Notes under the pieces: model-generated | Databases searched by the model: none | What the model saw: only the letters and a program-made list of their open reading frames with translations | Told to the model about the DNA's origin: nothing | Shown: positions 3,087-6,680 of the stretch, piece by piece | How the letters are laid out: each line of letters opens with the position of its first letter | How positions within the stretch are numbered: the stretch's first letter is position 1 | Position numbers and translations under genes: made by a program | Assembly: GCF_013315695.1 (NCBI RefSeq) | Contig: NZ_CP054353.1 | Source: Escherichia coli | GTDB taxonomy: Bacteria > Pseudomonadota > Gammaproteobacteria > Enterobacterales > Enterobacteriaceae | Reading direction: 5' to 3' (one strand) | DNA length: 64,000 bases

Positions 3087-3521
3087 ATGCGACAAATCAT
3101 CGACACCCTGGCGCAGTTGCAGCGCCTGCGGGATAAATCGGTCAAAGACAAAACCGTCGAGCTGGCAAAGCAAAAACAGATTTGTGCGGGTTATGACAAC
3201 AATATCAAAGCATTAGGCTACCTGGTGGAGAAAACATCTGCGGGCGCGGCAGCGTCGGTGGAATCGCTGAAAAACGTCAGCGACTACAAAGGCACCTTGC
3301 GCAAGGTGATCGCCTGGCAGGAGCAGGAAAAAACGCTGGCTAACATCAAAGCCACGCGAATGCAGAAAAACCTGACGGCGGCGGCGTGCGAAGAGAAAGT
3401 GGTGGCCCTGACGCTGGACGACAAACGCCGCGAGCAGCAAGAAAGTGCCACGGCGAAAGCGCAAAAAGCGGTGGATGACATCGCCGTCCAGTGCTGGCTG
3501 CGGCATAAGTTAGCGGAGTAG
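3087..3521 (+). CDS. lfiJ: Flagellar export chaperone-like protein, FliJ family (LfiJ)
   Basis: 144 aa coiled-coil-type protein; ATG at 3087 two nt after the fliI-like stop; position after the ATPase gene. Confidence 0.6.
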   Translation: MRQIIDTLAQLQRLRDKSVKDKTVELAKQKQICAGYDNNIKALGYLVEKTSAGAAASVESLKNVSDYKGTLRKVIAWQEQEKTLANIKATRMQKNLTAAACEEKVVALTLDDKRREQQESATAKAQKAVDDIAVQCWLRHKLAE

Positions 3522-3523
3522 CC

Positions 3524-3928
3524 ATGAAAACGGTCATCACCTTCGGCACCTTCGATGTGTTTCATGTCGGTCATCTGCGCCTTTTACAACGCGCCCGCAC
3601 GCTGGGCGAACGGCTGCTGGTCGGCGTATCGTCCGACGCCTTAAATATCGCCAAAAAGGGCAGAGCACCGGTTTACCCTCAGGATGACCGCATGTCGATC
3701 ATCGCCGGGCTGGCGTGCGTGGATGGCGTATTTCTGGAGGAATCGCTGGAGCAGAAAGCGGAGTATCTGCGGGGGTACCGTGCGGATATTTTAGTGATGG
3801 GCGATGACTGGGCAGGAAAGTTTGACAGCTTCGCGTATATTTGTGAGGTAGTGTATTTCCCCCGCACGCCGTCGGTGTCGACGACGGGGATTATTGAGGT
3901 GATTAGGGGTAAATCAGCCACCTACTGA
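3524..3928 (+). CDS. Cytidylyltransferase (glycerol-3-phosphate cytidylyltransferase TagD-like, nucleotidyltransferase superfamily)
   Basis: 134 aa; N-terminal FGTFDVFHVGH (HxGH) motif; ATG 2 nt after the lfiJ stop with GGAG upstream, so translationally coupled to the flagellar operon. Confidence 0.75.
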   Translation: MKTVITFGTFDVFHVGHLRLLQRARTLGERLLVGVSSDALNIAKKGRAPVYPQDDRMSIIAGLACVDGVFLEESLEQKAEYLRGYRADILVMGDDWAGKFDSFAYICEVVYFPRTPSVSTTGIIEVIRGKSATY

Positions 3929-3976
3929 TTTAATTCCCGCAGTGAGAGAAGATGATGCCGTTTGGCTATGTTAAAT

Positions 3977-4079
3977 ATGTTTAAAAAATCGCGTTTTTTC
4001 GACATATCCCCAAAACATGTCGATGGCATAAACGTATTCCAACGACATGTTTAAAAATCGCATTTTATCGACATATCCC
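3977..4079. repeat. Two ~34-bp direct repeats (ATGTTTAAAAA-TCGACATATCCC) in the convergent intergenic region
   Basis: Copies at 3977-4010 and 4047-4079, each with an internal ACATGTCGA/TCGACAT inverted motif; the second overlaps the glycosyltransferase stop. Confidence 0.4.
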
Positions 4080-6521
4080 TGACGATTCCTTGCCCGCCAA
4101 CGCCTCCACAATCACCATCGTCGCCCGTTCTCCCGCCTTGCCATCCATAAACGCATCGCAATAGTGATGACGAATCTTCGTAAGCCGCGCCTGCACCGCC
4201 CCCCAGTCAAACGCCTCTGACAACAAGTAACGCAACTCTGCCATATCATGAGCCACCGGCAATATTTCGCGGATTTGCTGATCGGCGCTCTCCGGCGTGG
4301 AGTAGCTTTTCTCGCCGTCGAGCAATTCACTCATGCCCGGAAAGTCGAGCAGGATCACCCGCTTATCAACGTGGATAGCATCGAAAATAAAGCCGCTGTT
4401 ATCGGTCAGCACGTAATCGGCCTTTGCCAGCAGCGCCAGCGTGTGACGGGCGGAGTCGGTGCGCTGTTTTAAATGCCTGCGAGCCAGGGCCAGCGATGCA
4501 GCTTCTTCCGGGCGCGAGCAGGTGCCGTGGTGCAGTTTGCAAATCAGGTTCACATCATCGCTTAAGCGCCCCAATTTTTCTGCCCAGTGGGGCAGGGAGC
4601 TTAATGCGCCAAACGTTGGGGCGTAGAGTACGGTGGGTTTACGCTCGTCCAGTTTGATATTTTCCGGCAACGCGCGGTCGAACGTGGCGTTATGCCAGGC
4701 GTCGAAGCGCGGGTTGCCGACCACTATTGCGTTGCTGAGGTGCGCCAGCGCCTGCTGGCTGTAGTGGCTGTAACACAAAATGCGCTGATAAAAACGGTTC
4801 CAGTCGGCGTGGTTCCACGTTTCTTTGGCTAAGCCGTACATGGCGCGAATGTTCAGGGGGGAAAGGCCACTGAGCGCAGGCGTGTGATAGGGGCTGACCA
4901 GGCATTTTACTCGCTGACCGTGTGCCTGCATTTCTGACAGACGCATACCTTTAAGCTGCGGATCGTCGATGTTTTTCAGTGTTTCCAGCATCTCATCCAG
5001 AAACGGTTTAAACACGCGGTCATTGATCACCAGTGTGCAGCTCTGCCCCTGCGCCTGCAGGGCGGTGATGATTGGGCGGTAGAGCGCGTAGTGGAATGAG
5101 GTTTCCATAAAAAAGCCGATGGTATCGGCGATAGGTAATGTAGATGGCTTGGTGGCTACGGGTAACTTATTGAAGTAGTGGTTAATGTTATCAGTCGCTT
5201 TTTTCTCGATATCACTAAAGCCCGGTCGCTGATAACAAAGGCTCGGGTAACAGGCCAGCCATTTGTCGGTGCGCAGCAGCGGCTGCCAGCCGTCTTCCAG
5301 CGAATGCTCATCGTTGTTCATCTGCTGCGCCAGCTGCGGGTAGTAGCGGCGGTTCACCAGATAAGCGCACACTTTGCGGCAGTCCCGCGCGTGCACCAGC
5401 CCAGGCAAACTTTTTAGCATCGTTCCCTGCGAAATTTCGCCGCCGAGGATCATCACCTGCCAGGGAATTTTCGCCAGGCTCGCCAGCAGCGCGTTCAGCA
5501 CCTGAATATGTTTCTCCTGTTTGAGAATAACCGCGTCATCTTCCAGCAGCAGGTAGTTTTGCCAGCCGCGTTGTTGCGCCAGACGCAGTGCCTGCAAGTG
5601 TGATTGCTGGCGGCCCCGTTGACCGTTTTCATTTTCACTGGCGGCAAGGCGGGTGATCTTCTCAGGAGGAATATGCAGCAATGTGAGTTCTTCACGGATC
5701 TGCTGTAAGCGATCCGGGCGTTTATCCAGATTCAGCAGAACGATCTGATCGATCGCCTGATGATGAGTGGCGTTATGCAGACTCAGATAAGCATTGCGGA
5801 GCAGCGGATCGCGGACGATATCCGTAAGCGTCGCGTTTACTGGCGTGCTGGCCCCGAGAATAAAGTCTTTATCAAAGGTGTTGTGGCTGTGCGAGATACA
5901 CAAAATCGTGCGCTCGCCGGGCAGTTGTAGCGGGTTAACGCTGAAATTGTCGGTGAAACTTTTCTCTTCGCCTAAATTGCAATCGTCATCGTAGCGGTGC
6001 TTTTTCAGGTAGTTACGGTGATAGCAAAAGGTGCCGTTGAGGATGTTATGCGGGCCGAAGCTGCGGCTTTGAAAGATGCGATTGATGTGGCTGTACCAGA
6101 TGGGGATCTGGTCGGAACCGGAGATGAGCGCCCGGTTTTTTTGCATCATAGCGATGGTGTAAGAGATTTTATCTGCCGGGTAGTAGTCGTCATCGTCCAT
6201 GCAGAGGATGTATTCGCCGCGCGCCAGTTCGTTGAGCATATTGCGTTTTTTGCCCAGCGGCAGTTTTTCCGGGTGATGGATGTAGCGGATGTTGAAGGCT
6301 TCCGGTGTGCCATTGGTCAGGCGGTCGATGATGTGTTGATGGCTTTGCGGGGAATCGTCGAGGATGATGAGTTCGCGGCGGTCTGCCGGGTAGTCCTGAT
6401 AGCGGTACATATAAAGCAGGTACGGCAGGAATGCGCTGCGGTTCCAGGTTGGCGTGACGACGCTGACGGACGGTTTTTCGCGCTGGGTGGCGAGTGTTTT
6501 GATAATGGTTGGTGTTGGCAT
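4065..6521 (-). CDS. Large multidomain glycosyltransferase (GT-A family 2-like + GT25-like + CDP-glycerol glycerophosphotransferase-like domains)
   Basis: N-terminal VSVVTPTWNR and CMDDDDYY (DxD) GT-A motifs; central LLNLDKRPDR GT25-like motif; C-terminal TagB/TagF-like region. The ORF track begins at a GTG (6593) inside a repeat, so ATG at 6521 is preferred. Confidence 0.75.
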   Translation of the reverse strand: MPTPTIIKTLATQREKPSVSVVTPTWNRSAFLPYLLYMYRYQDYPADRRELIILDDSPQSHQHIIDRLTNGTPEAFNIRYIHHPEKLPLGKKRNMLNELARGEYILCMDDDDYYPADKISYTIAMMQKNRALISGSDQIPIWYSHINRIFQSRSFGPHNILNGTFCYHRNYLKKHRYDDDCNLGEEKSFTDNFSVNPLQLPGERTILCISHSHNTFDKDFILGASTPVNATLTDIVRDPLLRNAYLSLHNATHHQAIDQIVLLNLDKRPDRLQQIREELTLLHIPPEKITRLAASENENGQRGRQQSHLQALRLAQQRGWQNYLLLEDDAVILKQEKHIQVLNALLASLAKIPWQVMILGGEISQGTMLKSLPGLVHARDCRKVCAYLVNRRYYPQLAQQMNNDEHSLEDGWQPLLRTDKWLACYPSLCYQRPGFSDIEKKATDNINHYFNKLPVATKPSTLPIADTIGFFMETSFHYALYRPIITALQAQGQSCTLVINDRVFKPFLDEMLETLKNIDDPQLKGMRLSEMQAHGQRVKCLVSPYHTPALSGLSPLNIRAMYGLAKETWNHADWNRFYQRILCYSHYSQQALAHLSNAIVVGNPRFDAWHNATFDRALPENIKLDERKPTVLYAPTFGALSSLPHWAEKLGRLSDDVNLICKLHHGTCSRPEEAASLALARRHLKQRTDSARHTLALLAKADYVLTDNSGFIFDAIHVDKRVILLDFPGMSELLDGEKSYSTPESADQQIREILPVAHDMAELRYLLSEAFDWGAVQARLTKIRHHYCDAFMDGKAGERATMVIVEALAGKESSGICR

Positions 6522-6570
6522 GGTGTTTGGGTGAGTTAATGGGTGAATGTGATGAATGTGCGTGCTGATG

Positions 6571-6680
6571 CCCTCACCCCGACCCTCTCCCACAGGGAGA
6601 GGGAGAAAACCAGCGCCGATTTTAACACCGTGCTCGATCGGTTCCCTCGCCCCTTTGGGGAGAGGGTTAGGGGGAGGGGA
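6571..6680. repeat. GC-rich double palindromic intergenic element
   Basis: CCCTCTCCC-ACA-GGGAGAGGG (6583-6603) and CCCTCGCCCC-TTT-GGGGAGAGGG (6644-6666), flanked by CCCTCACCCC and GGGGGAGGGG. Confidence 0.45.

Follow-up and report, generated by a model that had tools for sequence, protein, structure and literature searches.

Comparison with related loci demonstrates, at the level of sequence, that the two 34-bp direct repeats in a convergent gap of the window—the whole stretch of 64,000 nucleotides of Escherichia coli DNA analyzed here—are what survives, 1.5 units, of an array that formed the 5′ control region of a SoFic gene since deleted and, hence, a fossil. The account as a whole combines this relic with an auto-operator array that is inferred for loci still intact and with an inert copy in the window, and it is held with good confidence.

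The Flag-2 gap and its deletions

The gap separates a cytidylyltransferase gene from a convergent glycosyltransferase gene and measures 157 bp. Copy 1, ATGTTTAAAAAATCGCGTTTTTTCGACATATCCC, occupies 3977–4010, and copy 2, (C)ATGTTTAAAAATCGCATTTTATCGACATATCCC, occupies 4046/4047–4079; a 1-nt indel and a small number of substitutions set the two apart. Repeat finding yields an ungapped 30-nt core with 90% identity between the copies and a spacing of 69 bp. The repeats are beyond what chance would give: A 33-mer self-match stands alone, with 0 matches in 100 shuffles, and TCGACATATCCC features two exact occurrences plus one 1-mismatch site versus 0.31 expected. An array HMM from a different genome matches just these two places in the 64-kb window (E 2e-9 and 1e-8), dispersed copies are absent from it, and TRF misses the array because 1.5 diverged units fall below its threshold. 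The first-pass annotation had described two 34-bp direct repeats in this gap, one of them lying over the glycosyltransferase stop, and both are real (3977–4010 and 4046–4079). It had also placed an inverted motif in each of them. TCGACAT is indeed found in both (3999–4005 and 4068–4074), but ACATGTCGA lies between the repeats at 4015–4023, where a half-site ACATGTCGAT spans 4015–4024. The inverted partner of TCGACAT is a degenerate ATGTTTA at the 5′ end of each repeat. In addition, an 18-nt inverted repeat is found between the copies (4013–4030/4035–4052, 89% complementary). The repeats are direct and adjacent within a single gap and lack the features of a MITE, namely terminal inverted repeats, target-site duplication, and dispersed copies.

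The region is 100% identical to that of E. coli strain MSB1_4I and belongs to the Flag-2 (lateral flagella) locus, after the homologues of fliG-H-I-J. Variable region 1 of Flag-2 is a published cargo hotspot that carries TagD, glycosyltransferases, and LafV; Fic is unmentioned in that survey (PMC6993521). The TagD-like cytidylyltransferase gene of this variable region occupies 3524–3928 on the plus strand (Pfam CTP_transf_like, E 2.5e-19). On the minus strand, the gene of a GT2 plus glycerophosphotransferase-type glycosyltransferase occupies 4065–6593 (Glycos_transf_2, E 3.4e-18; Glyphos_transf, E 1.2e-5), for which the RefSeq annotation of the identical strain MSB1_4I gives a CDS of 4065–6521. 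This gene has lost its own stop codon, and its reading frame ends inside copy 2 with a TAA at 4065–4067. The altered 3′ tail (4065–4097, minus strand) ends in ...VIVEALAGKESSGICR versus ...VIVEALG in loci L004 and L088. The last five codons of the cytidylyltransferase (KSATY*) are antisense to the 3′ end of a fic gene, and the tail ...EVIRGKSATY* is common only to the window and to the fic-bearing locus of strain 4FM, whereas loci with other cargo end in ...EVIRGLL* or ...EVIRGKA*. Every gap variant departs from the others directly after ...EVIRG, and this point marks the cargo junction. In Escherichia sp. E1V33, a second, 5′-truncated copy of the cytidylyltransferase gene lies beyond the array (L009 2500–2810, tail ...EVIRGDYIKY*); with tagD sequence also on the far side of the array, array and fic are bracketed by it.

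With the 157-bp gap as a query, the matches are other Flag-2 loci and the DNA directly 5′ of a 358-aa fic gene (77–80% identity), the latter in unrelated chromosomal contexts. In other E. coli, the match to positions 3975–4081 lies directly 5′ of fic. In strain 4FM (L004), the same Flag-2 gap features an intact fic gene, 2.5 array units, approximately 200 bp with a REP pair, and the glycosyltransferase stop. Global alignment of window 3900–4130 to this locus resolves collinear blocks and four deletions. The first block (3900–3942, L004 1835–1877, 42/43 identical) contains the stop and the last six codons of fic at 3922–3942 on the minus strand, overlapping the 3′ end of the cytidylyltransferase gene. 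A deletion of 74 bp inside the fic 3′ end (L004 1878–1951) is followed by codons ~316–327 of the winged helix-turn-helix at 3943–3972, also on the minus strand; this remnant is composed of 3943–3955 (L004 1952–1964) and 3956–3972 (L004 1972–1988) and is interrupted by a deletion of 7 bp, likewise inside the fic 3′ end (L004 1965–1971). The otherwise identical relic of strain GN04592 (L090) keeps these 7 bp. The third deletion covers 1011 bp (L004 1989–2999) and comprises fic codons 1 to ~315 together with the promoter-bearing proximal array unit; window 3973–4052 then corresponds to L004 3000–3079. The fourth, of ~207 bp (L004 3117–3323), comprises the REP pair. Remains of the fic 3′ end, thus, occupy 3922–3972, and 3973–4088 contains two parts of the array, its middle unit and a distal partial unit. 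The former unit (3973–4024, minus strand) contains copy 1 and the half-site at 4015–4024 and corresponds to the middle unit of 4FM (nhmmer 4024–3974, model positions 1–51, E 2.2e-9). The latter (4027–4079, minus strand) contains copy 2 (nhmmer 4079–4027, model positions 15–68, E 1.4e-8) and aligns to L004 3082–3110 and neighboring bases.

Other occupants of the gap are found elsewhere. Locus L088 carries REP sequences only, with cytidylyltransferase and glycosyltransferase genes present and no trace of the repeats. E. coli JA0072 (L089) has the same two genes, the repeats being absent. Two overlapping hypothetical genes of 179 and 273 aa (L089 667–2020), neither of which matches a PADLOC model, lie where fic sits in 4FM. 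The REP-adjacent DNA on the glycosyltransferase side of L089 is common to 4FM, and so this site swaps cargo. Among 5,426 complete E. coli genomes, ~107 carry a relic of the window type, six carry a Flag-2 gap with fic intact, and ~250 carry a 9-unit array at another site. The genome-wide search for the repeat proposed by the first-pass annotation gives one array place per genome among the listed genomes of the window type, with no dispersed copies. Identity of the relic to its counterpart in NZ_LT599825 is 92.7%, versus 94.3% for the flanking region.

An ancestor carried array and fic as Flag-2 cargo between the cytidylyltransferase and glycosyltransferase genes, as the sequence comparison shows. 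Later deletions took fic codons 1 to ~315, the proximal unit with its promoter, and the downstream REP pair. Left behind are two operator copies, a glycosyltransferase frame that terminates in the second repeat, and ~50 bp from the 3′ end of fic. The first reading of the repeats as a remnant, hence, survives with another origin: the repeats stem from the control array that lay 5′ of a SoFic gene now lost, and not from a small mobile element. Since the window contains neither promoter nor start codon nor cognate protein for them, the repeats most likely do nothing and represent an inert relic.

A different role was considered for the relic, namely that it was co-opted as a two-way transcript end or stabilizer for the convergent operons in place of the deleted REP pair. 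The RNA of the gap is predicted to fold into hairpins on both strands (−33.3 kcal/mol with z −3.0 on the plus strand, −34.8 kcal/mol with z −2.3 on the minus strand), and REP/BIME sequences, absent from the window, occupy this position in fic-less gaps. However, hairpins are an automatic by-product of palindromic operators, the stems lack a U-run, no terminator-like site is found on either strand of 3929–4064, and the glycosyltransferase frame enters the element rather than stopping before it. Co-option, therefore, has a small chance of being correct.

The array and the fic gene

The product of the intact fic gene is of the SoFic type, as judged by PADLOC (SoFic, E 1e-121), by its Pfam composition of Fic_N, Fic, and SoFic-like_C—the last being a C-terminal winged helix—and by matches to PDB entry 9vjc (E 7.5e-212) and to the Shewanella oneidensis SoFic entries (E 1e-148). 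The protein belongs to the class II Fic AMP-transferases. Catalogues of defence systems list SoFic as an anti-phage, abortive-infection toxin, and toxicity in E. coli is on record (PMC12249575).

When one genome per species is scanned, 79 loci encoding Fic relatives are recovered. All 38 Enterobacterales loci among them (71–99% protein identity) feature units of ~70 bp upstream of fic as detected by the unit HMM; these share the strand of fic without exception, keep register, and end at the ATG. Their arrays range from 1 to ~10.5 units, with 1–11 hits per locus and typically 2–3. Among the hits listed, the units are confined to arrays beside fic or a fic relic, save for one marginal hit (L024, E 0.009). 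No neighboring gene is common to more than seven loci, and the single ORF cluster common to 12 loci falls within the array itself. In E. coli 55989 (L002), approximately nine units of 70 bp run up to the fic start codon. This array shows a higher-order period of 140 bp at 96% identity (L002 1714–2075), which indicates that blocks of two units were recently duplicated. A separate tandem repeat of 59 bp × 3 lies beyond the neighboring HTH_3 gene (L002 2730–2905). Regulation of the array by that upstream HTH_3 gene is not supported, as this neighbor is not conserved in other contexts. A second Fic-family gene of 337 aa follows directly after that of SoFic in L003 (1–142) and L008 (199–1212), on an element that also carries a MobH relaxase and a GNAT acetyltransferase. 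Plasmid p1 of Pseudomonas silvicola carries one array unit (L007 2491–2551), and the incomplete PLSDB annotation lists no fic for it.

The tie between array and gene is also recovered from the side of the DNA. A metagenome scan with the operator pattern alone, made without reference to fic, returns 64 contigs, and in 41 of these, fic starts at exactly +1, +71, or +141. Six of the 64 contigs carry the Flag-2 relic as in the window, one is too short downstream to judge, and one carries a distant Fic relative (31% identity); two of the 64 are left out of the relic tally. Fic-less relics amount to at least 18 of the 64 contigs. The relics other than that of Flag-2 retain an ATG with an early stop behind it, a start codon altered by mutation, or a C-terminal fragment alone. 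Viral_contigs scanned for the operator pattern—as possible phage-borne decoys—gave no match.

Individual contigs add detail. Fic-less arrays of 1–4 units occur in unrelated contexts (L103, L117/L126, L124/L128/L135/L144, L127, L131/L149, L141, L147/L158, L155, and L156). Some of these metagenome arrays keep the ATG and run into a stop within a few codons; in L149, AAG replaces ATG and the three fic codons after it are kept (GTCTGGAAT), and L156 keeps 35 N-terminal fic codons and a C-terminal fragment. In L114, an exact match to the operator pattern (146–181, ATGTCGATAAAATGCGATTTTTTAAACAT) lies upstream of a Fic homologue (456–1463) that is 31% identical to the query.

It looks as though fic has been lost repeatedly while the array stayed, and the palindromes of the array may be deletion hotspots. 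That such relics are frequent could also mean that the array itself is of some use and is not neutral debris. One form of this idea holds that orphan arrays are selected as a decoy or docking platform for SoFic encoded elsewhere or on a mobile element. The recurrence of fic-less arrays in several unrelated metagenome contexts, with the deletion often beginning at the ATG or a few codons from it, and the retention of the relic in ~107 complete E. coli genomes fit with this; so does the reported modulation of a related Fic enzyme's activity by DNA binding (PMC10628234). However, the single array place per listed genome of the window type gives no evidence of a second SoFic array, the relic varies by the 7-bp indel between strains and is no more conserved than its flanks, and loss of a toxic gene beside deletion-prone palindromes explains the pattern without selection on the array. 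Selection for decoys, thus, has a slender chance. The repeats of the window themselves are a case of ordinary gene decay.

A candidate operator in intact loci

The unit consensus in the fic sense, derived from 45 distinct units, reads ATCGACACGT-N7-ATATGTCGAT-AAAAnnnnnTTTTTT-AAACATAT-N5-GTGACATGTTTATGGC. Positions that never vary in it comprise both half-sites (TCGACA and TGTCGA), AAACAT, and the runs of A and T. The 34-bp element corresponds to a palindrome of TGTCGA-N15-(T/C)CGACA or (T/A)AAACA. The N15 spacing is kept in 82 of 99 pairs and 34 of 38 loci in Enterobacterales and in 11 of 22 pairs in distant relatives; for the opposite arrangement, TCGACA-N13-TGTCGA, the figure is 69 of 71 pairs. 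At N15, the half-site centers are 21 bp apart, that is, two helical turns or ~71 Å. The proximal palindrome overlaps the fic start codon in intact loci. Just upstream of it, among further half-sites, a candidate sigma-70-like promoter points at fic (GTGACA-17-TATTAT/TATGAT, 10/12 consensus matches). This promoter-like match occurs in the proximal unit only, in three independent loci (L071, L004, and L002), and by eye, the unit alignment has a CGTTCT-type sequence in the distal units where the −10 box would be. Window 3400–4700 contains no promoter-like site on the minus strand. A Shine–Dalgarno sequence is absent before the enterobacterial fic start (TTTTTTAAACAT ATG) in L009–L044 and present in distant relatives (L045 and L056); given this absence, translation of the toxic fic gene may be deliberately weak.

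The most likely role of the palindromes in intact loci is that of an auto-operator array for a SoFic dimer, a role demonstrated by experiment for CccR and suggested for SoFic. The dimer would dock on the palindromes through its two winged-helix domains and, once bound, repress its own toxic gene; extra upstream units would serve as auxiliary operators. Over the 150 bp that precede fic, the half-site hexamers reach a 58-fold enrichment in Enterobacterales. Relatives from several phyla at 51–58% identity still show a 17-fold enrichment, and those at ≤49% identity have none of the hexamers there. All loci of the TCGACA type share AKRQTAS as the recognition helix and GREKL, or a close variant, as the wing. 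In three loci with the upstream repeats GAACATGA, the helix is G(T/N)R(K/V/T)T(A/V)S and the wing is WRDKVF instead. In these loci (L051, L055, and L057, of Hyphomicrobium-like and other MAGs), GAACATGA/TCATGTTC replace TCGACAT/ATGTCGA in the 250 bp upstream of fic. The joint change of helix, wing, and repeat looks like a natural specificity swap.

Binding in vitro was reported for SoFic itself: The dimer, not the monomer, binds a 100-bp fragment from upstream of the gene and not a composition-matched control, and this binding is resolved to the level of that fragment (bioRxiv 10.64898/2026.07.09.737422). A Shewanella locus whose protein is 99% identical to SoFic, not from strain MR-1, features ATGTCGA-N5-TCGACAT and ATGTCGATAaaagaaggttttttAAACATG in the last 100 bp before the start, the stretch to which the bound fragment corresponds. 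In another observation on this genus, the SoFic gene of a Shewanella sp. (L091 1501–2619) lies between type I restriction genes with R-subunit domains (ResIII, Helicase_C, and EcoEI_R_C) on one side and M-subunit domains (HsdM_N and N6_Mtase) on the other; with these flanks, it is located inside a restriction–modification locus.

The first-pass annotation had allowed for protein-binding sites. For intact loci, this fits with fixed-spacing palindromes that always precede a gene for a putatively DNA-binding Fic protein, whereas in the window, that gene is gone. Inverted half-sites at a fixed spacing that overlap the predicted promoter or the start of a Fic-HTH gene, as in an operator of the CccR type, are found in the intact relatives, and the window keeps two palindromes only. 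The window repeats match the unit model, and both the fic start at the end of the array and the proximal promoter are lacking there. A more far-reaching proposal treats the 70-bp arrays as multisite docks that hold SoFic dimers and thereby set the silent versus the toxic state, with orphan arrays blunting incoming SoFic genes; this is unlikely, if conceivable.

Several other identities of the unit were rejected or set aside. A dispersed REP/ERIC-like repeat was suggested by several places per genome, which turned out to be offset self-matches within one tandem array, and within the 4FM gap, the REP part alone is genome-wide. A CRISPR-like array does not apply because the stretches between the 34-bp elements are also conserved, which makes the unit a 70-bp tandem repeat. 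ORFs of 45–59 aa ending in ...ICR* in 12 loci do not point to an array-encoded small protein: They arise since ATGTCGATAA gives an ATG and an in-frame TAA, and the reading frame shifts from one unit to the next, 70 not being divisible by three. The likeness to a DnaA box (TTATCGACA versus TTATCCACA) is one by eye only, and the motif tracks the winged helix of Fic.

The repeats could also encode RNA, either as an array in the style of a type III toxin–antitoxin system or as a small RNA controlling Fic. The position of the tandem direct repeats, just 5′ of a gene for an abortive-infection toxin, is reminiscent of ToxI/ToxN, and the array units fold into hairpins in which 92–94% of cells pair. 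Most of these pairs never vary and are, hence, uninformative. Against an RNA, covariation of the hairpins is no better than in shuffles, which reach the observed score in 321/500 and 87/500 cases; in the one variable pair, 27 of 45 cells are unpaired. A search of Rfam gives no credible match (best RgsA with 15.2 bits versus a gathering score of 88.4, E 0.73). Furthermore, the promoter predicted inside the proximal unit places the other units upstream of the transcript, the half-site tracks the DNA-binding domain, and Fic is an AMP-transferase (Fic_N, Fic, and winged helix-turn-helix), not an RNase. Taken together, an RNA role is very unlikely and the auto-operator array is preferred. The proposal of a MITE-like scar that brought the glycosylation genes into Flag-2 draws on the palindromic nature of repeats at a known cargo hotspot, Flag-2 variable region 1 (PMC6993521), and can practically be dismissed: The unit occupies one place per listed genome of the window type and is tied to fic everywhere else, the copies are direct within one gap instead of terminal inverted repeats around genes, and the same glycosylation genes occur without repeats in L088 and L089.

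A literature search found no account of tandem repeats upstream of SoFic, and the intact array is, apparently, a conserved regulatory architecture that is undescribed in searchable papers. A candidate operator of the SoFic family can now be defined as TGTCGA-N15-(T/C)CGACA or (T/A)AAACA in repeating units of 70 bp, the last of which contains the predicted promoter. SoFic is a defence toxin for which binding of the upstream 100 bp was reported only in 2026; this motif makes its regulation directly testable. For annotation, it matters that the gap of the window contains a decayed defence gene and that the glycosyltransferase carries an accidental tail longer by nine residues. Variable region 1 of Flag-2 has, therefore, borne phage-defence cargo besides flagellin-modification genes, and the frequent fic-less relics suggest that the control DNA often outlasts the gene itself.

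Comparison with known systems

REP/BIME elements resemble the repeats of the window as palindromic repeats in convergent gaps, and real REP sequences occur in the same gap of L088 and L004. REP is found in 5425 of 5426 E. coli genomes at a median of 23 places, whereas each listed genome of the window type has the unit at a single place, and the unit is linked to fic.

ToxI units are 36-nt RNAs that are cut and bound by an RNase toxin, and a terminator precedes the toxin gene. The SoFic arrays share with ToxI/ToxN the arrangement of tandem direct repeats immediately upstream of an abortive-infection toxin gene. Unlike ToxI/ToxN, they feature no RNA covariation beyond that of shuffles, the toxin is an AMP-transferase that carries a DNA-binding domain, and the predicted promoter lies in the last unit.

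The class II Fic toxin CccR of Yersinia pseudotuberculosis carries an HTH domain at its C-terminus and represses its own promoter; its dimer binds widely spaced inverted repeats at the −35/−10 region of that promoter (PMC9755527). The DNA-binding helices of CccR are ~70 Å apart (PMC9755527), which is close to the 21-bp (~71 Å) half-site spacing found here. Its half-site is AGATAATCAT with a spacer of 26 bp, compared with TGTCGA and N15 in the SoFic arrays, and it has a single operator in place of a 70-bp tandem array. CccR is also distant—a T6SS effector with 29% identity to SoFic over 45% coverage (PMC9755527).

Another close system is SoFic of S. oneidensis, which belongs to the same family as the array-linked Fic (E 1e-148) and carries an identical recognition helix, AKRQTAS. 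The Shewanella locus with the 99% identical protein features ATGTCGA-N5-TCGACAT and ATGTCGATA-N-AAACATG, as in the array elements. Approximately two dispersed copies are present in Shewanella, in contrast to the regular 70-bp tandem array of the enterobacterial loci, and the copy in the window is left without its gene.
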